DNA of 64,000 nt from positions 33,398 to 97,397 of the forward strand of contig JANLSU010000119.1 in the NCBI GenBank assembly GCA_031362565.1. The letters run 5' to 3'. This document shows positions 12,506 through 22,779 of this stretch, in pieces. The stretch's first letter is position 1, and each line of letters begins with the position of its first letter. A model generated the notes under the pieces. The model was not told the DNA's origin, did no database searches, and was given only the letters and a program-made list of their open reading frames with translations. This stretch comes from a bacterium. Its GTDB lineage: Bacteria; Krumholzibacteriota; Krumholzibacteriia; G020349025. The position numbers and the translations under genes were made by a program.

Positions 12506-13930
12506 TCACACCGATGGCCGGATGTTCTGATTCATCCGGAAGAGATTCGTGGGATCGAATTTCTTCTTGAGCGTGACGAGCCGGTCGTAGTTGCTGCCGT
12601 AGGCTGTCTTGACGCGCTCGCCCTCGTCCTGCGTCAAGAAGTTCACGTAGACGCCACCGGTCGCGAACGGCGCCGCCGCTTGGAAGAGTTCGCGCGCCCA
12701 GGCGATGCACTTGGTGTCGTTGGCCGGATCGGCCCAGCGGCCGTGCACGTTCATCACGAATTGCGCGTCGCGGTGCGTATAGGCGGTCGCTTCCGGCGCC
12801 ACCCGGCTGACTGCGCCACCCAACTGCGCGACCGCGATCTCGGTCTGCGGATCGGGGATCTTGCGCGCGTGGGCAATCAGCACGTCGATCAGGCCGTCGC
12901 TCACTTCCAGGAAATCGTGCGACTTCCAGTAGTTACGTGCCCCGGGAGTCAAGAGCGGATCGAGAATCGTCTGCCAAGCCGTGAACGGATGCGGTGCGAT
13001 GACGTCGGCGAGCGGCTTCCCGAAGTCGCGCAGTGGTTTCGCCATGCGCTCGCCATCTTCGATCGTGCCGTTGTAACAGACGGCGAGGGCGAGGATGCCC
13101 TTGCCGTGCCATTCCACCGGCAGGAAGGGCAAAGGCGGCGCCAGCCGCAGCACGAACCAGCAGACGAATTCCTCGGGCGTCGTGGCGATGAAGCTGCGGT
13201 AGAAGCGCAGCACATCCTTGGCCGCAGCGAGTGGATGGACGATGAGTCCCGAGAGCACCTCGGGCCCGACCGGATGGAGTTTGAATTCGAAGGACGTGAC
13301 GACACCGAAATTGCCGCCGCCGCCACGAATGGCCCAGAAGAGATCCGCGTTCTCGGTGGCGCTCGCCTTCACCAATTCACCGTTCGCCGTGACGACATCG
13401 ACCGAATTGAGGTTGTCGATCGACAGCCCGTACTTGCGGCTCAACCAACCGAAGCCGCCACCGAGCGTCAACCCGGCGACGCCGGTCGTGGAGTTGATTC
13501 CGAGTGGTGTCGCGAGTCCGAAGGCCTGCGCCGCCGTGTCGAATTCGCCGAGCGTCACACCTGCTTCGACGTGCGCGATGCGTTTTCCAGAATCGATGCG
13601 AACGCTCTTCATGGGCGACAGGTCGATCATGAGACCGCCATCGCAGACAGCATTACCGGCGATGTTGTGGCCGCCGCCGCGTACCGCCAGGACAAAGTCG
13701 TTCTCGCGCGCCAAGCTCACTGCCTGCACGACATCGTCGGCCGAAGCGCAACGCGCAATGAGCGCCGGCCGCCGATCGATCATCGCATTCCAAATCGTCC
13801 GCGCTTCGTCGTACTCCGACGACCCGGGCATCACGATGCGCCCGCGCAGCGCGCCTTTGAAATTCTGCAGGGCCGTTTCGGGCAGCGGCTTGTCGCCACC
13901 GGAGCGCGTTTTGATCTTCAGGTCGGGCAT
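12506..13930 (-). CDS. FAD-binding oxidoreductase, berberine-bridge-enzyme/6-hydroxy-D-nicotine-oxidase-like
   Basis: RGGGHN covalent-FAD His motif; GLTLGGGFGWL; DLFWAIRGGGGNFGVVT; C-terminal YVNF...KKKFDPTNLFRMNQNI (BBE). Confidence 0.93.
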   Translation of the reverse strand: MPDLKIKTRSGGDKPLPETALQNFKGALRGRIVMPGSSEYDEARTIWNAMIDRRPALIARCASADDVVQAVSLARENDFVLAVRGGGHNIAGNAVCDGGLMIDLSPMKSVRIDSGKRIAHVEAGVTLGEFDTAAQAFGLATPLGINSTTGVAGLTLGGGFGWLSRKYGLSIDNLNSVDVVTANGELVKASATENADLFWAIRGGGGNFGVVTSFEFKLHPVGPEVLSGLIVHPLAAAKDVLRFYRSFIATTPEEFVCWFVLRLAPPLPFLPVEWHGKGILALAVCYNGTIEDGERMAKPLRDFGKPLADVIAPHPFTAWQTILDPLLTPGARNYWKSHDFLEVSDGLIDVLIAHARKIPDPQTEIAVAQLGGAVSRVAPEATAYTHRDAQFVMNVHGRWADPANDTKCIAWARELFQAAAPFATGGVYVNFLTQDEGERVKTAYGSNYDRLVTLKKKFDPTNLFRMNQNIRPSV

Positions 13931-14049
13931 TGTTCCTCCAACGGGCCTCGAACAACTCCGGCGGCGCCTCGACTGTAATGCGGGCGAGTCGGTGGCGGAA
14001 ACCCCCGATCGGCACCCCGCATGTTCATGCAGGCCGCGACCCTGGCACT

Positions 14050-14502
14050 CGGAACGGGCGGCTGTCGCGTGTGCTCACCACGCTGCTGCTCTTGCGCGCG
14101 GGATACGTATACGCACCGTATGCATCTTTGGAGCGGGTGAACGAGGAAAACAAGGACCTGTACTACAAGGCTTTGCGCCGCACGCAAACGACACTCCAGA
14201 GCGATGCACCGGACTGGGAGCCTTGGATCGGGTTCTTCCTGCGCTGCGTCAAGAAACAGAAGGACACCCTCGCGGCGCGGCTCGATCGCGAGTGGACCGC
14301 TCAGGGCGGTGAGGATGAATTAACGCAGCTCTCCCGCCAAGTGCTCAAAGCCCTGCGCGAACAAGACCGCCTGACCATCGCCCAGCTCATCTCGATCACC
14401 GGCGCCAATCGCAATACCCTCAAAGTGCGGCTCCGCGAGCTCGTGGCGGCCGGCCAAGTCCGCCGGCATGGCAGGGCGCGCGCGACTTGGTATTCGCTCT
14501 GA
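14050..14502 (+). pseudogene. 5'-truncated Fic (AMPylase) family gene with C-terminal winged HTH
   Basis: Homology begins abruptly at NGRLSRVLTTLLLLRAGY, the second half of the HPFxDGNGRxxR motif; YYKALRRTQ...WEPWIGFFL; wHTH ANRNTLKVRLRELV...GRARATWYSL. The catalytic His and N-terminus are absent. Confidence 0.8.
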
Positions 14503-14747: not shown

Positions 14748-15365
14748 CTAGATCAGCGCGGCGGCGCATTCGATCGCAGCGAGAATCTCCATCCGGTCCC
14801 ACGTGGCGACCGGGGCACCGATGGCGTGAAGGATTTCCGGCGTCCGGCCGCGCGCCCGCGGGTGGCGCACCACACAAACGCCCTTCCGCAGTTCAAGCCC
14901 GGTGCGGAGCTCCCAGTCGACCCAGTCCTGCCAGCGGGACCCGCTGCCAACGACGCAGACGACAATTGCGGCGCGCGCAATCTTTTCTTGGATGATCTCT
15001 TGCGCCAGCACCGCCGCTGGACTCTGGAACGGCGCCCGCAGGCTGCACTCGTAGAAGTCGAGTGCAATCTTGGGATGGCGTGTCAGCTTGTGAAGGTCGA
15101 GCACCTTCGCATGATCTTCCGCGTGCACGCTCACGAACACCCGGCGCGACTGGGCAACTTCGCGGGCTTCGCCGTGAAACGCGCGGCGCAGTTGCCGCAA
15201 GGAGCGGAATCCACGTGCGGCGAGGAAGGCGGCGATTCGCATGTCAGGCGGTGCGTTGAGGCGAAGGCCGTACCACGCCTCGATGTCCGCCACGCAGACC
15301 CCGGGGAGGGCGCGGCCAAACGCGGCGCGGACTCGCGGGCAGAACTTGCGAATCTTCGTGCTCAT
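14748..15365 (-). CDS. TIR-domain protein, ThsB/DUF1863 (MTH538)-like, with about 70-aa unassigned N-terminal domain
   Basis: RRVFVSVHAED (beta-A F-x-S), IQEKIARAAIVVCVVG, WVDWELRTGLELRKGVCVV with the putative catalytic Glu; ATG 15365 after GGGGGAAAG. Confidence 0.82.
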   Translation of the reverse strand: MSTKIRKFCPRVRAAFGRALPGVCVADIEAWYGLRLNAPPDMRIAAFLAARGFRSLRQLRRAFHGEAREVAQSRRVFVSVHAEDHAKVLDLHKLTRHPKIALDFYECSLRAPFQSPAAVLAQEIIQEKIARAAIVVCVVGSGSRWQDWVDWELRTGLELRKGVCVVRHPRARGRTPEILHAIGAPVATWDRMEILAAIECAAALI

Positions 15366-15653
15366 CGGCTTTCCCCCACCAATGGCTCCCGGAGGTCGAA
15401 ATCGCACCCTCGGGCAAAAATCGCGGTGACGCGCCGGATCCGTCGTCCTTGAACCAACGCGGGGAGTCCATCCGCCGGGCACGCCACCGCAACACGGCGC
15501 TTCGCCGCCGCGGCGGCCCCCGTTTGCGCTCGCCACAAGTAGGCGCGGGCGGCAGTACCCTCACTGCCGCCCGCTCCGCCCTTGGGGGGGGACTTGTCCG
15601 CGTCCTATGATTGACAACGTCCCGAGGCAAGAATCTGCACGCGCCTGGAAGAA

Positions 15654-16808
15654 CTAATTTCCAACGCCCGCCCGCTGCGGCGACCGAACCCAGCGAACCG
15701 CGGTCGAGTTCGCCGCCACACCGCTGCCGGCGCTGCCCGCGCTGCCACCCCTGCCGGCCCCGCCCGCGCCCGCCCGCCGCAGCTCTCCATCACCGCCCTC
15801 CGCGAGTCCCTTCATTGGACAAACGAGCGTCGCCCGGTCGCCGGAAAAGAGCCCCCGCATCCAACGGCGCATGTCGGGCCCCGAAAGCTCCATTCGCCCG
15901 CCGGGTCGCAAGCGCCCGACTTGATTGGCGGGGTGGTCGAGTGCCACCGTGCACTTGCCGATGCGGCCATCGGATCGCACCACGAGCGAGTTGCCGCGCG
16001 ACGCGTAACAGACGGTCTCGAGATCGTCCGGGGTCACCAGTTCGACACCCAGTTCATCCGCCCGCTCGCGCAGGCGCACGAACACATCGGCCATGCGTTC
16101 CGCGGCGAGATAGCCGAACGTCGCGTCCGCCGGTCCGCCGAGCGGCGACAGCGGCCGCAAGAAAACCGCGAAGCGCGGGTCACCGCCGAACTCCGCTGCG
16201 AAGGCCTCGAGGAACGACCCGAGCGATGCTTCATTGTCGGCGCTCGCATGCAGTCGCATCAGCATCCGAAACGTCGCATCGCGGCGCCGCATCGCGCTCA
16301 GGTTGCCCCAAATACGCTCGAACGTCGCGCCACCGCCGGCCCGCCGCCGCGTCCGATCGTGTTCCGCGGCCGGACCATCGAATGACACTTGATAGCGTCT
16401 AACACCAAGCTCGAGAAGCCGCCCGGCGACATCGGGCGTCAAGAACCAGCCGTTCGTTGTGATGTCGCCGCTGACCCGCAGCTTGGGATTCGCAACCGCC
16501 AGCCGTTGTACCGCGCCCATCACGTCGTCGATCACCGCGCGCGCCAGGAGCGGTTCACCGCCAAACCAAGCGATGGCGAGTGAATCCAGCTCCGGGGCCC
16601 GGATTTCCAACCATTCGACGAGCGCACGCACGATCCACGGCCGCATGCGCCCCGATTCGAATGTCTCGTAGCAGTAGGTGCACCGGAAATTGCATTTCTC
16701 CGTCGGCATGACGATGACGTGCAACTCGCGGGCGTCGAGGCCGCGGTACACCTCTCGCAGCGGAACTGCGAGAGGTGTTGCCGCGCCGGCTCGTGGAGCC
16801 TTCAGCAA
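15654..16808 (-). CDS. Radical SAM enzyme with short twitch-type auxiliary Fe-S domain, putative peptide maturase
   Basis: MPTEKCNFRCTYCYE (CxxxCxxC), WFGGEPLL, ITTNG, QVSFDG...HDRTR; C-terminal CYAS...DGRIGKCT...VCP. Probable TTG start at 16808 overlaps the upstream stop codon; start uncertain. Confidence 0.9.
   Translation of the reverse strand: MLKAPRAGAATPLAVPLREVYRGLDARELHVIVMPTEKCNFRCTYCYETFESGRMRPWIVRALVEWLEIRAPELDSLAIAWFGGEPLLARAVIDDVMGAVQRLAVANPKLRVSGDITTNGWFLTPDVAGRLLELGVRRYQVSFDGPAAEHDRTRRRAGGGATFERIWGNLSAMRRRDATFRMLMRLHASADNEASLGSFLEAFAAEFGGDPRFAVFLRPLSPLGGPADATFGYLAAERMADVFVRLRERADELGVELVTPDDLETVCYASRGNSLVVRSDGRIGKCTVALDHPANQVGRLRPGGRMELSGPDMRRWMRGLFSGDRATLVCPMKGLAEGGDGELRRAGAGGAGRGGSAGSAGSGVAANSTAVRWVRSPQRAGVGN
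16748..16778. repeat. Perfect 13-bp inverted repeat (stem-loop) at the precursor/rSAM junction
   Basis: ACACCTCTCGCAG-CGGAA-CTGCGAGAGGTGT read directly from the sequence. Confidence 0.85.
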
Positions 16809-17197
16809 CGCGCATCCACGACGACGGGTGCATCGTCGTCGTCTTCGGCGAAAATGGCGCCGCCCTTTGCCTTTGCCCTTGCCCTCGCGCTCGCATTGGC
16901 TGCCGCAGGCATCGCGAGCGGCCCAACGCGAAACAGTCCCGAAAAACACCCCTCAACGGGGTTGTCCAGGAACTGAAGGACAGCGCCTCTCAGATCGGCG
17001 TTCTTGAGAGTGATCCGCCCGGTCGCTGCGTCGAATGCGACTTCGTCGCCCTCGAAGTTGCCGAGGGCGGCTGCATTGATGCCCCGCGGCTTGGCCTTCG
17101 GGGCACGCGCTCCGGGTGCGGCGCGCTTGGCGCCACGTGCTGGCGGAATCGGGCTCTTCTTGCTCTTGGGATTCGATTTCCGAGGTTCGATTGGCAT
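16802..17197 (-). CDS. 131-aa small protein, putative RiPP precursor or rSAM substrate ending EDDDDAPVVVDARC
   Basis: Strong RBS AAGGAG before ATG 17197; K/R/P/A-rich N-terminus; central EVAFDAATGRITLKNADL; terminal D-x-x-C; stop overlaps the rSAM start. Confidence 0.7.
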   Translation of the reverse strand: MPIEPRKSNPKSKKSPIPPARGAKRAAPGARAPKAKPRGINAAALGNFEGDEVAFDAATGRITLKNADLRGAVLQFLDNPVEGCFSGLFRVGPLAMPAAANASARARAKAKGGAIFAEDDDDAPVVVDARC

Positions 17198-17238
17198 GTG
17201 GTTCTCCTTCAAGGTTTATATCGATCCATCGATCCGGT

Positions 17239-20205
17239 TTAACGCCAGTCTCCAACTGCTACGAATCCTGCCCAGTGATACGGATGTCCGCCCGCACCGC
17301 GGGCCCGCGCTGCTTGCAGCGCACCAAGGCTCGCGGCGCGCACTGCCGCCGCCGTATCCATTTTCTTCTGGAAGTGATTCTCGTACAGCGAATGCATCCA
17401 TGCCCCTGCATCCTCGTCGGCGACAGACCAAAGGCTCGCGATGACCGTTCGAGCGCCCGCCTGTTGAAAGACGCGGCGGAGCCCCATGACACCCTCGCGG
17501 GCGCGAAGCTCACCCAGCCCGGTATCGCAAGCCGACAACACCACCCACTCGACGCCTTCCAGGTCGAGTGAGGAAACTTCGTCCACCGTCAGAATGCCGT
17601 CGTCGCCTTCGACGGCGCCGGCCGCGGCGCGCCGGTTGGCGCCCGCGAATGCGAGTCCCGCAAAGGGCACATCACGCGCGGGATCGGCCAAGAACCCGTG
17701 GGTCGAGAGGTGAATCACGCGCCGGCCGGCGGCCGCAGCTTTGAAGCCGCGTTCGGTCGCCTTCTGGCCCAAGAGACAAAGCGTGTCGGCCGACACGGCG
17801 CGCGCCCACAACACCTTGATGTCCAACGCTTCGCGCCCCGAAGCCGGCAGCGGCCGGAATCGCAACCCGCTGGCCACGCGCCGCGAGTGCGCTGCTTGGG
17901 CCATTTCGGGTGGACCGAAATCCGGATTGCCGACCGCGAGCAGTCCGACATTCCGCTGCTGCGTTCTCTGCGGCACGAGATCGCGTTCGGCGGTCAGAAG
18001 ATGCACCACGGTTTCGCCTTCAACGAGATAGCGCTGGCCGTCCAACGGCAGCGCCATGAAATTGACGAGGTGGATGGCCCCGTCGGGCACGACGAACACC
18101 CGGCGCGCCGCCCGGAGCGCCGTCGCAAGTGGATCCCAGAGCGCCCGGCGCACGCGCTCGCCGTCGGCGCGACACGCGGTTTCGCCGGCAGCGAGCACCG
18201 CGTCCGTTTGATTCGCACCCGCTTGCAGATCACGCGACCATGCAGCGATCCCGGTGTCTATCGCCCCGGCGCTTCCGAGGTCGTAGGCCGCGACCGTGTG
18301 TTTGTCGCCACTGACGACGAATGCGGCGTACGCCTGTACGGGCTTCGCATTGAGCCCGCCGGCGGCGCTGGCGGTGGGAATGCGCGTGTACCGCACGTAC
18401 ACAACGAGCGCCTCACCGGCATGCAGGTGGGCGGCAACCGCCTCGAAGTCGATGCGCTGCCGTTGCTGCTCGGTGTGATAGGCAGCGCTCTGTGCCGCCA
18501 GTTGTGCTTCCACGGCATCCTTGGCGGCGAGCGTCGCGTCGAGGCTGTGCTGATAGTCGGCATTCGACGCGCCGCCGGGCCCGCGCACGGCGAGCGACGC
18601 ATAGCGTGTCCGCGCCCGGTCGAGCTCGCGGTCGAGACGGATGACCAGCGAGTCCTTGGAAGCGGCAACAGCGCGCCGCTCCGCCGCCACCTCGTCGAAC
18701 ACCAGGAGACGCGATTGCACGATGGCATCCACAACCTGGCGCGCGGTTGCCGGGTCGGGGTGCTGCGTGGCAATCGAAACGGCGCAGTCGAGACCCGAGG
18801 TCCGAATGGCCCCGTAGTCGGTCGCCTGGCGTTCCGGCGCGTGCCGCGCCATGCGCCGCAGTTGTTCGCGGCCCACAGCTTCCGCATGCAGCGCCTCTGC
18901 CAACGCCGGCCCGATGGCGCCGGACTGGGCCGTGGCCCGCGCCAGAACCGCTTCGCAATCCATGGTGCGCGGGTGCTCGCGGCCAAACGCGTGCTCGTAG
19001 ATCCGCTCGGCGGCGGCGCTCTTCGTTTGCGCCGCTTCGACGTGTCCCTCGGCGAGATCCAATTCCGCGAGTTCGATCTGACAGCTCGCCACATCCGGAT
19101 GTTCCGCCCCGAGCAAATCGGTCCGCAGGTGGAGCACTTCTTCGTACCCGCGCCGTGCCGCCGGCAAGTCTTGGAGGTTCATTTGCAACTCCGCCGCGCC
19201 GAGCAGGTACGCCGCCAAGTCGAGCGGCGAAGTGCCCGGCTGCGACCGCAGGATCTTCAAAGCCTGCTCATACTTGGCCTGCGCGTCCCCGAAACGCCCT
19301 TGTTTGCGATCCAAGTCCGCGAGGTTGTCGAGAACGTTGGCGATGAGTGGATTGGTGGGCTCGAGCTTGCGGGTGCGAATCGCAAGGGCGCGGTCGAAGC
19401 ACTGGCGCGCTTCCACGTAGCTGCCCGTTTCCATCAACAGGGCACCCAGGTTGTTCAGCACGCCTGCTACGGAGAGATTGTCGGTGCCCAGAGCCTTCTC
19501 GCGAATCGCCAACGCGCGGTCGTAGGCGTCGCGGGCGGATGGGAAATCGCTCGTCCACCAATACAAGATCGCCAGGCCCATGAGCGTGCGGCTCACGTTC
19601 ATAGGGTCTTTGTCGAAGTTCCGCTCGCGAATGGTGAGTGATTGCTTGAGGCTCGTCTCCGCCGCATCGTAGTCGCCGAGCTTAGTAAGCAGAATGCCGA
19701 GGTCCTTGAGCGTTTCCGCGACCTCCGGGCTCGCGACGCCGAAGGCGGTGCGGCGGATCGCGAGCGCGCGCTCGTAGCAACCGCGGGCGCCGGAGAAACG
19801 TCCCGTATCTTCATACACGATCGCCAAATTGTTCAGGCTGGTGGCCACGTCCGGGTGCGTGGGGCCGGAGAGTTTCTCGTGCAGATGCACGGCGCGTTCC
19901 GCGAACTCCCGCACGTCCGCCACGCCCGAGTGCGCTGCACGCGTCGCGGCTTCGACCAAGAGATCGAGCACTGCCGCGGTCTCGGAGGAGTTTTTGCCGG
20001 ACGACGCTTCGACACGGCGGAGCGCGCTCCGCGCGTGTTGCTCGGCGCCGGTGAAGTTGGTGCTGTCGATTTGGGCCCGAATGGCGGTGATCTCGGGTGC
20101 GGCCGGCAAATCGGCTGCGCCCGACGCGCGGGGCACCGGCAACGCCCACCAACCCAACCAAGCGACGATGAGCGTCCGGCTGAAGTACGGTCGGGGCTTC
20201 CGCAT
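17239..20205 (-). CDS. Exported TPR (kinesin-light-chain-like repeats) plus CHAT caspase-like protease
   Basis: Signal-peptide-like N-terminus; repeated HPDVATSLNNLA...YERALAIR units; VPDGAIHLVNF; VIHLSTHGF (His) and VVLSACDTG (Cys) dyad intact; SLWSVAD; HPYHWAGF. Confidence 0.92.
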   Translation of the reverse strand: MRKPRPYFSRTLIVAWLGWWALPVPRASGAADLPAAPEITAIRAQIDSTNFTGAEQHARSALRRVEASSGKNSSETAAVLDLLVEAATRAAHSGVADVREFAERAVHLHEKLSGPTHPDVATSLNNLAIVYEDTGRFSGARGCYERALAIRRTAFGVASPEVAETLKDLGILLTKLGDYDAAETSLKQSLTIRERNFDKDPMNVSRTLMGLAILYWWTSDFPSARDAYDRALAIREKALGTDNLSVAGVLNNLGALLMETGSYVEARQCFDRALAIRTRKLEPTNPLIANVLDNLADLDRKQGRFGDAQAKYEQALKILRSQPGTSPLDLAAYLLGAAELQMNLQDLPAARRGYEEVLHLRTDLLGAEHPDVASCQIELAELDLAEGHVEAAQTKSAAAERIYEHAFGREHPRTMDCEAVLARATAQSGAIGPALAEALHAEAVGREQLRRMARHAPERQATDYGAIRTSGLDCAVSIATQHPDPATARQVVDAIVQSRLLVFDEVAAERRAVAASKDSLVIRLDRELDRARTRYASLAVRGPGGASNADYQHSLDATLAAKDAVEAQLAAQSAAYHTEQQRQRIDFEAVAAHLHAGEALVVYVRYTRIPTASAAGGLNAKPVQAYAAFVVSGDKHTVAAYDLGSAGAIDTGIAAWSRDLQAGANQTDAVLAAGETACRADGERVRRALWDPLATALRAARRVFVVPDGAIHLVNFMALPLDGQRYLVEGETVVHLLTAERDLVPQRTQQRNVGLLAVGNPDFGPPEMAQAAHSRRVASGLRFRPLPASGREALDIKVLWARAVSADTLCLLGQKATERGFKAAAAGRRVIHLSTHGFLADPARDVPFAGLAFAGANRRAAAGAVEGDDGILTVDEVSSLDLEGVEWVVLSACDTGLGELRAREGVMGLRRVFQQAGARTVIASLWSVADEDAGAWMHSLYENHFQKKMDTAAAVRAASLGALQAARARGAGGHPYHWAGFVAVGDWR

Positions 20206-20254
20206 CAACGTCCTCTTCGGTTCGCGGCGCGGAGCTCCTCTCCTTGGGCACCTT

Positions 20255-22069
20255 CTACGGTTCGCGCTTCACCAAGTGAATCCGCCACGTCCAAACTCCC
20301 GGCGCACGTTCCAAGTCGCGGATCAGTCCGGCGATCGTGCCGGCGTGATCCGCGGGTTTGGGCCGCGACACCAGTCCATCGATGCCGCGTGTCAGGCGCG
20401 CTGCGCCGACGGCGGCAAAGTCATTGGCGCCTTCTGAATTGACGCGCGGTAATGCCGCCAGAGTCGTTTCCAATGCCTCGATCGGTTGGCGGGCCGCGAC
20501 CACGAGAATCGTTTCGGCGGCGCCATCGCGCGCCACCGACCAGTTGGCTTCTTCGCCCTGCAAACCGGTTGGCAGCCGCAGCGCTTGTTTGCCCGGCAAG
20601 CGTGGCGCAGCACCTGGCTGGGTCGGATGCAAGACGTAGGCACGGCCTTCGTTGTCCTCGTCCAAAACCCAAACACGCAACGGTTGCGCCATCTTCAGCT
20701 CGAGAAACAACTGATCGAAGGCTTGCACCGTATCGCCGTCCGCGAGTTGTTGGCCTTTGCCGCTACGGTCGCGGAAGAGCCGGGCTTCGGCGTGGGCGGG
20801 CAAGCGGGCGGGCAGCAGAACCAATGCCGCGGCGGCAGCGCCCGCCGCGGCGACACCGAGAGCGACACGCCACGGGTGGCGAGTGAACGCGTGCCACCAC
20901 GGTGTGGACGGTGGTGAATCAGGGACTGGCACCAAGTCGAGGCTCGCCAGCAGTGCCGACTGCATCTGGCCGGCACTTCCGAAGCGTTGCGCCGGATCCG
21001 ATGCAAGAGCGCGCTCGACGGCGCGCGTGAACTCCGGTAGAACGTCCGTCCGCTTTTCGGCAAGCGACGCGCGCTCGCCGCGCGCCTGGCGCGTCATGAG
21101 TTCGTCGATGTCGTCGGTGTCGATCGGATAGGAACCCGTGACCAACCAGAACAGCAACCCTCCGAGCGCGTAGATGTCGGCTGCTGCCGTCGGGCGGCCG
21201 CCGCGCAGGACCTCGGGGGCGACAGAAAGCGCCGTGACCGGTCGCGCTCCGGCGTCGGCGTCGGATTCAAGATCCAATGCCGAACCGAAGTCGGTGAGCA
21301 CGATGCGCCCACCTTTCTCACGCATGACGTTCGCGGGCTTGATGTCGCCATGGACGAGGTTCGTGCGGTGCAACTCTGCCAGCGCACCACAAAGGTCGAT
21401 GCCGATCGCGGCGGCTTCGCGCGCACTGAGCGGGCCGCGCGTTTCGACGCAATGTTGCAGGGTCTCGCCGCGAATGAGATCGGTCCAAATTCCCGCCCTG
21501 CCATCGTGCACAGCACAGTCGAAGACCGTGACGATGTTGGGATGACGGACACGCGCCTGGTTGCGGGCTTCATCGAGAGACTTCTCGAGCCCGGCGGAGT
21601 CGCCGGCACGGCGCAATTTGAGCGCCACGTCGCGCTTGAGGTTGGGGTCGTAGGCGCGATACACCTCGCCGAATCCACCGGTGCCGATTCTTTCGTGAAC
21701 CACCAGCCGCCCCCAGTGCCACGCTGGACTGGGGGCCGGCATCTGCCCCGGCGGCGCATCCTCGGCCGGCTCGTCCGCATCCGGCGCGGCCGCCGATGTC
21801 CCGGCCGCCACGGGTGGCGACGGTGTGGTTCCCGTCGCTGTCGCGGCGCGTTCCTGCGCCGCACGCGCGACGTTGTGCCAGTCGGCTTGATAGGCGTCCG
21901 CCAACCGCGCGATGTCGGCGAGACGATCGAGGCCGGCTTGAGCGTCAACGTCGCCGGCGCCCGCACGCTCGCGGTCCCAATCGACTGTCCGGTGGTCGGC
22001 GAGCGCCTCGGCAACGCGCTGCAGCCGATCGTCGCCGCGCGCCTGCTTATTTTTCCCCATTCTTCCCAT
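20255..22069 (-). CDS. Transmembrane Ser/Thr protein kinase (non-RD, HGD) with extracytoplasmic DUF4384-like domain
   Basis: GTGGFGEVY, VALK, HPNIV, HGDIKPANV, DFG, APE, ADIYALG; TM WRVALGVAAAGAAAAALVLLP; GDTVQAFDQLFLEL...VWVLDEDNEG...VLHP...ETILVVAARQP. Confidence 0.9.
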   Translation of the reverse strand: MGRMGKNKQARGDDRLQRVAEALADHRTVDWDRERAGAGDVDAQAGLDRLADIARLADAYQADWHNVARAAQERAATATGTTPSPPVAAGTSAAAPDADEPAEDAPPGQMPAPSPAWHWGRLVVHERIGTGGFGEVYRAYDPNLKRDVALKLRRAGDSAGLEKSLDEARNQARVRHPNIVTVFDCAVHDGRAGIWTDLIRGETLQHCVETRGPLSAREAAAIGIDLCGALAELHRTNLVHGDIKPANVMREKGGRIVLTDFGSALDLESDADAGARPVTALSVAPEVLRGGRPTAAADIYALGGLLFWLVTGSYPIDTDDIDELMTRQARGERASLAEKRTDVLPEFTRAVERALASDPAQRFGSAGQMQSALLASLDLVPVPDSPPSTPWWHAFTRHPWRVALGVAAAGAAAAALVLLPARLPAHAEARLFRDRSGKGQQLADGDTVQAFDQLFLELKMAQPLRVWVLDEDNEGRAYVLHPTQPGAAPRLPGKQALRLPTGLQGEEANWSVARDGAAETILVVAARQPIEALETTLAALPRVNSEGANDFAAVGAARLTRGIDGLVSRPKPADHAGTIAGLIRDLERAPGVWTWRIHLVKREP

Positions 22070-22748
22070 TCTTGCCGTTCTTGAGCCCCATCTCCTTGGC
22101 CAAGTTGACGAGGCCGCGGCTCAAGACCATGCGGGCGGCGTTTCGCGTCCGCTTCCCGAGCGCCTCCATGATGACGGCGGCACTCGCGCCCCATTCGACG
22201 TGCAGCGCGACCGCGATTTGCTGGTCCTCGTCGAGCCGTCCCAATGCCGCCCGGTAGCGGGCCTCGAATTCGGAGCCCAAGACTCCGTCCAATGGCGTCG
22301 CGGCGCCGTCTACCATGTCTGGATCCAACACCGAGAATTCCGGCTTGCCGTCCGCCCACCGGTATTCGGTCGCCACGAGATTGCGGACGATGGTGCGCAG
22401 GTACGCCAGGAACGCGCCCGGACCTCGCGGCTCGAAGCCGTTCATCTTGTTGAACGCTTTCGTGAAGGCGATCTGCACGAGGTCTTCGGTCACGAGCCGG
22501 GCTCGGGCTCGCCCGGCCAGCTTGCCGTGCGCCGCCCGGCGGAGGGCCGGAGTGAACCGGCGCATGAGATCGGTAATGGCGCGTTCGTCCCCGCTCCGCG
22601 CCCGGATGATCAGAATGGCCGTCGTTTCGAGTGGGCGAGGTGGTTCTCCCCCCCCGCCCGTCGGGTGGTCTGGTCCGTCCAACACAAAAACCTCGCTCGG
22701 GGTCCCCGATCCGGTTTCGGCCTGGCGTGACGATTTGGGCTGGCACAT
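22047..22748 (-). CDS. ECF sigma factor (kinase-associated type)
   Basis: RARSGDERAITDL, VTEDLVQ (region 2.2), AFLAYLRTIVRN; region 4 ALGRLDEDQQIAVAL...ALGKRTRNAARMVLSRGL; overlaps the kinase start. Confidence 0.88.
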   Translation of the reverse strand: MCQPKSSRQAETGSGTPSEVFVLDGPDHPTGGGGEPPRPLETTAILIIRARSGDERAITDLMRRFTPALRRAAHGKLAGRARARLVTEDLVQIAFTKAFNKMNGFEPRGPGAFLAYLRTIVRNLVATEYRWADGKPEFSVLDPDMVDGAATPLDGVLGSEFEARYRAALGRLDEDQQIAVALHVEWGASAAVIMEALGKRTRNAARMVLSRGLVNLAKEMGLKNGKNGKNGEK

Positions 22749-22779
22749 TCAGTATGGAGGGGGGCCCGGCCGCTGTCCA

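Follow-up and report, generated by a model that had tools for sequence, protein, structure and literature searches.

Background

Among the described bacterial switches that join a caspase-fold protease to a sigma factor, two are close in their parts to the locus reported here. According to the available text on DdvS/DdvA of Myxococcus xanthus (PMC11506125), a sigma factor of the extracytoplasmic function (ECF) type is paired with a single-pass membrane regulator that carries a cytoplasmic three-helix domain and an extracytoplasmic TPR-CHAT region; the His-Cys dyad of the TPR-CHAT region is proposed as the site-1 protease, and the signal that switches it could not be found in that study. The Type III-E Csx29/Csx30/CASP-sigma system consists of a TPR-CHAT protease, an anti-sigma-like partner and a sigma factor, and the accessible parts of the reports (PMC10028731; 10.1101/2022.08.17.504292) describe one group of Csx30 C-terminal domains as DUF4384, with cleavage in the flexible loop of that domain. 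A third system, PCaspase/PCi (10.1101/2023.06.23.546230), also contains CHAT, a sigma factor, a Ser/Thr kinase and a small co-encoded protein that inhibits the caspase-fold protease, but as described in the available text it works in the cytoplasm with a nucleotide trigger, PCi acts on PCaspase as an unmodified protein, and no radical SAM enzyme takes part. In this work we analysed a stretch of 64,000 nucleotides (the window) from a Krumholzibacteriota genome (assembly GCA_031362565.1, contig JANLSU010000119.1), in which genes for an ECF sigma factor, a receptor kinase and a TPR-CHAT protease are followed by those for a candidate precursor of a peptide that ribosomes make and that is modified after translation (RiPP) and a radical SAM enzyme.

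Kinase-linked ECF groups are known as well. The descriptions of ECF43 (EcfP/PknT, EcfK/PknS), ECF59-62 and ECF217, in their available text (PMC8999054, PMC7826278, PMC13147305), resemble the window in a membrane kinase encoded at position +1 and a conserved Thr in sigma region 2.2; PknS has a predicted N-terminal helical bundle, as does the window receptor, and CHAT is recorded near ECF54 and a DUF4384 anti-sigma factor in ECF25. None of these descriptions, within the same text, joins kinase, DUF4384 and CHAT or mentions peptide genes. For the peptide genes the nearest relatives are the NxxC ranthipeptide pair NxxcA/NxxcB, PapB and QhpD, where a radical SAM enzyme lies beside a precursor with an N/D-x-x-C motif; in NxxcA, Cys23 is joined to the beta-carbon of Asn20 (PMC8326336, available part), which serves as the chemistry model for the window precursor. 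Bufferins (PMC11626156, available part) likewise are long RiPP precursors, Sec-exported and under neighbouring ECF/anti-sigma control, but their enzymes are of the MNIO class, no caspase-fold protease accompanies them, and a signal peptide is usual in bufferins but exceptional here. Links of sigma factor with CHAT, of sigma factor with kinase and of DUF4384 with anti-sigma function are each already in print. No description of CHAT joined to radical SAM RiPP genes was found in open-licence papers and bioRxiv, and the attachment of a RiPP to a sigma-CHAT switch is undescribed.

Results and discussion

A recurring five-gene unit and its linkage in two phyla

A first-pass annotation, made from the letters of the window, had described six co-oriented genes, from the ECF sigma factor to a TIR protein, with close spacings and intact catalytic motifs, and ORF (open reading frame), junction and domain checks confirmed all of this (Table 1). 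The ECF and kinase genes overlap by 23 nt, 49 nt separate the kinase gene from the CHAT ATG at 20205, and 41 nt lie between the CHAT and precursor genes; the precursor and radical SAM genes overlap by 7 nt if the latter starts at TTG 16808, and 288 nt precede the TIR start (ATG 15365). The six ORFs are all found, on the minus strand, in the ORF list of the window, the base composition of the six-gene stretch resembles the remainder of the window, and a public sequencing-run contig, which may be the source of the same DNA, covers the entire stretch with 0 differences.

Table 1. Features of the locus, in window coordinates
Feature	Position	Strand	Basis and remarks
Sigma-70-like promoter match	22751..22779	-	just upstream of the ECF gene; sole match in the region
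ECF sigma factor, kinase-linked group	22047..22748	-	Pfam Sigma70_r2 E 2e-7
Single-pass receptor kinase	20255..22069	-	Pkinase E 2e-37; DUF4384 E 1e-4
TPR-CHAT caspase-fold protease, 988 aa	17239..20205	-	TPR_10/12; CHAT (PF12770) E 7e-58
Candidate RiPP precursor, 131 aa	16802..17197	-	no known family; K/P-rich N-terminus; no signal peptide
Radical SAM enzyme, twitch-type	15654..16808	-	Radical_SAM E 2e-17
ThsB-like TIR protein, 205 aa	14748..15365	-	ThsB_TIR E 2e-8; PF08937 E 1e-8

The annotation had staked its proposal of a new system on whether homologous radical SAM/peptide pairs are ever linked to CHAT or kinase genes elsewhere. Such linkage was seen: ECF, kinase, CHAT, D-x-x-C precursor and radical SAM genes occur as neighbours in other genomes, and with this co-occurrence the proposal passes its own refutation test. 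All five genes share a single contig at four loci in three genomes, in the order ECF-kinase-CHAT-precursor-precursor-radical SAM in G003:C49 (genome and contig; loci carry L numbers) and precursor-radical SAM-ECF-kinase-CHAT in G001:C36 and G003:C15; in G002 they are split over two contig ends, as ECF-kinase-CHAT-precursor-precursor and precursor-radical SAM. The linkage is also present in a second phylum, the Acidobacteriota, and on metagenome contigs, where the orders are CHAT-metalloprotease-precursor-radical SAM (G208, L047), metalloprotease-CHAT-precursor-radical SAM (G504) and radical SAM-ECF-zinc anti-sigma (G221:C66), the zf-HC2 anti-sigma being found in the Acidobacteriota variants only; in G817, ECF, zinc anti-sigma and CHAT genes are followed by a radical SAM gene missing its first ~88 residues. 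The linkage takes at least five gene orders in the two phyla. Three loci (L001, L047 and L132) keep CHAT, precursor and radical SAM genes with no sigma or kinase gene nearby, which points to the protease as the partner of the peptide genes, and the smallest unit common to both phyla is CHAT, precursor and radical SAM rather than sigma and kinase. The ECF, kinase, CHAT, precursor and radical SAM genes of the window form a recurring unit, and the TIR gene lies outside it.

In our trees of the radical SAM enzymes, both of them quick searches, the linked enzymes all fall on one side of a branch in tree 1 (86 rows; Shimodaira-Hasegawa-like approximate likelihood ratio test, SH-aLRT, 94) and again in tree 2 (49 rows; SH-aLRT 88-92), where a single change accounts for the linkage versus a mean of 6.8 in shuffles. 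CHAT and/or ECF genes adjoin the radical SAM gene on the same contig at 10 of the 15 loci of this clade (CHAT 8, ECF 7, both 5), a tally that leaves out two rows whose placement is unstable, L016 (Sulfolobus) and L044 (202 nt of upstream DNA, inside the clade only in tree 1), and at the remaining five the contig ends before the relevant side. Outside the clade, 0/18 short-type loci with at least 4 kb on each side had a CHAT or ECF profile match, a count in which many loci are near-duplicates and ECF profiles could miss distant groups; a peptide exporter is present at 10/18 of them, and none is adjacent in the linked clade. The radical SAM searches yielded 15/301 and 5/401, and in Myxococcota 1/301, at a locus without CHAT. 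Within the phylum the enzyme is found in 7/208 genomes at E<=1e-30, the five strong matches all in the family of the window genome and the two weak ones in G092 and G113. The chance of a gene falling within 3 kb of any of the nine CHAT genes of the genome is ~1%; kin are not independent, and the weight is therefore placed on how many different orders of the genes were found and on the occurrence in two phyla rather than on a test.

On this evidence we are highly confident that the linkage is selected. It is conceivable but very improbable that one or two insertions into a variable position of a widespread module created the pairing, which was then passed on without function: such a history would suit the presence of CHAT in 172/201 genomes of the class, the membership of five of the linked genomes in one family and the loss of parts at two loci, but the link has outlasted several rearrangements and unrelated precursor N-termini, it spans two phyla, and G003 carries two linked copies with different order.

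Two observations concern individual loci. In G817 (L165:8351-9220) the radical SAM gene starts exactly at the CHAT stop codon and has neither the CxxxCxxC half nor a precursor, as if after a clean deletion. A matrixin-like HExxH protein (Peptidase_M10, under cut-off) is encoded with CHAT and the RiPP genes at L001:7398-9509, L047:2685-4400, L132:10849-13068 and the end of L142.

The candidate precursor and its radical SAM enzyme

The small protein of the window matched no family in Pfam/NCBIfam-type scans and gave no usable match in the ESM Atlas. It carries a leader motif, F-D-x3-G-R-I-x-L, and ends in D128-A-R-C131. The terminal Cys is invariant in an 18-row alignment of precursors, in which no conserved cleavage motif was seen before the core. 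Among 14 linked precursors, four of them assigned by tree position and not by an observed link, all 14 have their last Cys within 0-4 residues of the C-terminus, and in 12 of them D/N stands three positions before it; the leader hairpin motif F/I/V-D-x-x-G-R/K-I-x-I is found in nine, and in 19 of 22 others. Precursors outside the clade mostly hold two to many D/N-x-x-C cysteines (71 of the 119 Cys in the 22 unlinked precursors), and those of the linked clade hold a single terminal [D/N]-x-[R/K]-C motif, with R/K just before the last Cys in 12/14 versus 3/119 Cys in the others. A lipoprotein-type signal is present only in the G001 and G003:C15 precursors of the 14. Both precursor-first loci (L078:12488-13180 and L079:11841-12716) have a LuxR-type regulator directly upstream of the lipoprotein-like precursor.

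The radical SAM enzyme has C39, C43 and C46 in a CxxxCxxC motif and C267, C286 and C330 in a short three-Cys C-terminal domain, with no N-terminal extension long enough for a recognition element. TTG 16808 and GTG 16751 are the candidate starts, the latter fitting a database gene call of 365 aa; a longer version from GTG 16949 was rejected because homology begins ~60 residues later and the extension would overlap the conserved end of the precursor. At E<=1e-60 the search gave 716 relatives of the enzyme, and its score passes none of the NCBIfam cut-offs (TIGR04463, PapB NF047865 and FxsB TIGR04269 among them), the best score being 102 bits against 525; three relatives likewise fall far under the cut-offs, and by these comparisons it belongs to a large, unnamed family. 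It is quite likely that this radical SAM enzyme modifies the D-x-x-C motif of the small protein. Compared with NxxcA, PapB and QhpD as far as the PMC8326336 text describes them, the window differs in its short three-Cys enzyme outside the NCBIfam cut-offs, in its leader, in a predicted single terminal ring with a basic residue, and in the lack of an adjacent exporter.

Simpler radical SAM-precursor members of the family occur in cultured organisms, namely Nostoc (L005, L006, L023) and Alphaproteobacteria (L019, L033, L034), in which the chemistry would be simpler to study. Precursors of this family from Acidobacteria (L002:9192-9992, L049:2-508, L051:9042-9962, L048) carry tandem D/E-x-x-C repeats with 17-23 Cys after a Gly linker, are preceded in several loci by a small leader-like gene, and form a candidate poly-ring RiPP family with no NCBIfam model. 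In the Myxococcota genome G773 a precursor with three I-F-D-N-C-x-C repeats (L162:10851-11204) lies by a radical SAM gene of the family, with no CHAT or exporter gene seen.

The sigma-receptor-CHAT core

The best NCBIfam match of the ECF sigma factor is TIGR02984, under cut-off. Its region 2.2 reads V-T87-E-D (consensus of relatives E-T-D-D), and the Thr column holds Thr in 9/9 kinase-linked ECFs and Arg in two kinase-less ones; this conservation alongside a kinase fits phosphorylation of sigma, at a residue that by our reading of the motif sits one position before the EcfP site. The first-pass annotation had placed the pair under the ECF43/EcfP paradigm. As stated, that paradigm does not fit, because the acidic residues of region 2.2 are kept and the kinase protein has an anti-sigma-like architecture; ECF43 membership was rejected, the kinase adjacency being present but the acidic DAED-type motif being retained here and, in the available text of PMC8999054, absent from ECF43. 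The window ECF diverges from its group at conserved places, the Trp of R-W-A-H-G and the region 4 helix-turn-helix, and its promoter specificity or activity may differ as a result. Used as a query, it gave 0 matches at E<=1e-10 in four outside genomes.

The receptor consists of a three-helix domain (~6-74), a Hanks kinase (124-368) with intact motifs (K151, HGD242, DFG260), a membrane helix (~402-418) and an extracytoplasmic DUF4384 domain, whose match is under the curated cut-off here and over it in homologues. The first 75 residues are conserved, are predicted to fold into three helices (predicted local distance difference test, pLDDT, 81) and have no Cys/His zinc ligands; we regard them as a putative anti-sigma domain. 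A fold search with this domain gave unrelated generic helical bundles (best Z 7.2), and a sequence search of solved structures with its alignment found nothing credible. The DUF4384 domain is predicted as an Ig-like sandwich with one disordered loop (pLDDT <50 at domain positions 122-150) that carries T560-R561-G562. Its fold search returned generic Ig-like matches (best Z 9.6, rmsd, root-mean-square deviation, 3.3, 126 aligned) with no Csx30 chain among the matches listed, a protein search with the region found only the window's own protein, and a sequence search of solved structures with the DUF4384 alignment found nothing credible.

The CHAT dyad, H836/C893, is invariant in 14/14 aligned CHATs, and the N-terminus is hydrophobic and signal-peptide-like here and in homologues, from which the protease appears to be exported. 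Four further ECF-kinase pairs of the same type occur in this genome, five in total; a caspase-fold protease (CHAT in two cases, Peptidase_C14 in one) comes next after each of the three DUF4384-bearing pairs and after neither of the two with other ectodomains. The seven genomes of the family contain 14 strong DUF4384 matches, of which ten have a caspase-fold protease next to them, one a TPR fragment and one the radical SAM gene itself, no protease being seen at the other two; a precursor or radical SAM gene adjoins 6/14. At E<=1e-45 the CHATs closest to that of the window are found in 28/208 genomes of the phylum, mostly without this radical SAM enzyme. An ECF gene lies directly behind CHAT in at least nine of 29 other CHAT loci, and six operons examined in full hold CHAT, ECF and a kinase-less membrane protein that has DUF4384 and a helical N-terminus. 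In view of these kinase-less operons, the window protein is best read as an anti-sigma-type receptor with an inserted kinase. The ECF-receptor-CHAT core is common in the lineage; the kinase may be present or absent, and the radical SAM gene is usually absent.

The core resembles a DdvS/DdvA or Csx29/Csx30/CASP-sigma switch that has been split up. As compared with DdvA in the accessible text, TPR-CHAT is encoded here by its own gene, a kinase and a DUF4384 ectodomain are part of the membrane protein while zinc ligands are missing from it, CRISPR/CBASS islands were not seen, and the locus also carries RiPP genes; assignment to the DdvA type, in which zinc domain, membrane helix and TPR-CHAT form one chain, was rejected on the separate CHAT ORF and the lack of Cys/His ligands. 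The window differs from Type III-E, as far as its published text could be compared, in having no Cas7-11 or Csx31, in a predicted trans-envelope layout and in the kinase; no Cas family match was found among seven window proteins scanned with PADLOC. The statement of the annotation that no known system joins these parts is too broad for the core, a common module that has described counterparts and mostly occurs without peptide genes, and holds for the peptide add-on, so that only the add-on is new.

Two paralogous arrangements were seen. On the contig of the window and upstream of it, another ECF-kinase-DUF4384 pair (L145, G000:C93:8180-12874) comes before a gene for a Peptidase_C14 caspase that looks exported and has DUF4384 at its own end. 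In G003 (L183, G003:C46:347-17170) such a pair precedes two tandem TPR-CHAT genes, with a third TPR-CHAT gene and another ECF gene divergent in the vicinity.

How the peptide may act

The explanation that best covers the whole locus, which we hold tentatively, is a trans-envelope sigma switch with a ring-closed peptide that modulates its protease. The exported TPR-CHAT protein would bind the DUF4384 ectodomain of the receptor and, once triggered, would cut it, probably after the Arg of the T-R-G loop; the cut would free the ECF sigma factor from the N-terminal helical domain, activate the kinase to phosphorylate sigma at T87, or both. The radical SAM enzyme would recognise the small protein by its hairpin leader and join the Cys131 sulfur to the Asp128 beta-carbon in an NxxC-type thioether. 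The resulting D-x-R-C ring would span an Arg-Cys bond resembling the Arg site of the protease, and could act on CHAT by imitating a substrate in locked form, with braking as the most likely effect. Cleavage, the Arg specificity of CHAT, sigma phosphorylation and the thioether chemistry are steps that we infer.

That CHAT acts on the receptor is, on balance, probable. An action of the peptide on CHAT is favoured over other targets by the cross-phyla unit of CHAT, precursor and radical SAM and by the narrowing of the core to one ring with a basic residue, but we put it forward with reserve, and direct contact between peptide and protease is speculative. Separase cleaves after Arg or Lys. Metacaspases do so too, according to the available text of 10.1101/2023.06.23.546230. 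The most specific version, in which a four-residue thioether ring locks the scissile Arg bond and a RiPP has been recruited as a dedicated regulator of a caspase/separase-fold protease gating a trans-envelope sigma switch, is possible though doubtful.

Several facts weigh against the modulator explanation. The CHATs closest to that of the window (44-51% identity) sit in genomes without this radical SAM enzyme, and the peptide is thus dispensable and the two proteins do not track each other; co-evolution of CHAT and radical SAM was rejected on this ground. Twelve of the 14 linked precursors, including that of the window, lack a signal peptide while CHAT looks exported. In G208 and G504 the R/K pattern at the last Cys does not hold, and the enrichment of R/K, limited to one enzyme clade, may reflect a preference of the radical SAM enzyme or shared ancestry. 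The Arg specificity of this CHAT family is itself presumed, and Csx29 cuts Csx30 between residues 427 and 429 (PMC10028731, available part); a T-R-G-type loop is absent from two of 14 DUF4384 rows (L080, L148), both at radical SAM-linked loci, and is positioned elsewhere in kinase-less forms. [quoted passage not shown] G005 has the order ECF-kinase-radical SAM with no CHAT or precursor between, and G817 has lost the precursor and the catalytic half of the radical SAM enzyme. Support for the linked clade is moderate, neither tree being strong, and the long-branch Sulfolobus L016, which has no link, falls inside it in tree 2 only.

Another reading is a peptide that is the output of the switch, the sigma module controlling precursor and radical SAM genes whose product acts not on the protease but elsewhere, in stress, metal binding or competition. 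In its favour, the two genes come last in the run, both here and in G003:C49, most copies of the core do without them, sigma genes adjoin the radical SAM gene in G005 and G221:C66, where no CHAT was seen on the contig, and bufferin RiPP operons are under a neighbouring SigF/NrsF pair with Sec-exported products in the available text of PMC11626156. Against this, three loci hold CHAT, precursor and radical SAM with no sigma gene nearby, the peptide genes lie upstream of sigma in G001 and G003:C15, and the single terminal [D/N]-x-[R/K]-C core and missing adjacent exporter of the linked clade are left unexplained; we consider a pure output rather unlikely.

Less likely again is autoinduction by the peptide, with CHAT as a maturation protease that frees the ring and the ring as ligand of the DUF4384 receptor kinase, which then phosphorylates sigma. 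RiPP clusters usually need a protease and no other is common to all linked loci (the matrixin-like protein is present at four), the receptor has a predicted Ig-like ectodomain, two precursors are lipoprotein-like, and the sigma Thr is conserved alongside the kinase. However, most receptor-CHAT modules have no precursor, no cleavage motif is conserved before the core, the receptor is missing at three loci, and 12/14 precursors have no export route.

Should the peptide prove to regulate the protease, the RiPP attachment would be categorically new: RiPPs would gain a role as endogenous protease modulators in signal transduction, periplasmic TPR-CHAT proteases would have a natural ligand, and, if the effect is inhibition, a scaffold for inhibitors of caspase-fold enzymes would be at hand. 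The locus is compact enough to be cloned, and it supplies a possible substrate (the DUF4384 ectodomain with its Arg loop), a possible ligand (the D-x-R-C ring) and an effect that can be measured, either sigma release or T87 phosphorylation; it also proposes a role for DUF4384 that can be put to the test and defines a large unnamed radical SAM family with a clear precursor motif.

The TIR gene and flanking sequence

The first-pass annotation had suggested the TIR protein as a possible immune output of the system, which would make the six genes an anti-phage defence system coupling sensing and proteolysis to a TIR signal. The protein matches ThsB models and has its catalytic Glu in the motif WVDWE, and the sigma-CHAT systems of PMC11506125, PMC10028731 and 10.1101/2023.06.23.546230 are defence-related in their available text, so the core may well respond to infection. 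The TIR itself, however, is found in 1/208 genomes of the phylum (no relatives at E<=1e-6 in the other 207), no TIR match was seen near the related loci, 288 nt precede it, no ThsA-type effector was found among the flanking genes scanned (the neighbours being the radical SAM gene, a Fic remnant and an FAD oxidase), and its neighbour is a truncated Fic gene, an arrangement like that of an insertion site in decay. The six-gene immune system is highly unlikely; the TIR was rejected as part of the unit on its single occurrence and its absence at related loci, and looks like a local passenger.

Promoter and terminator scans of the region were at chance level, with one sigma-70-like match versus 1.0 expected in shuffles. 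The genes flanking the region are a sugar ABC permease gene, the RiPP pair and the TIR gene. Converging on the last, on the plus strand at 13930-14502 of the window, is a gene for a winged-helix protein of Fic/SoFic type that retains its C-terminal half (PADLOC SoFic E 5e-22, profile positions 200-347 of 361) and looks like a remnant.

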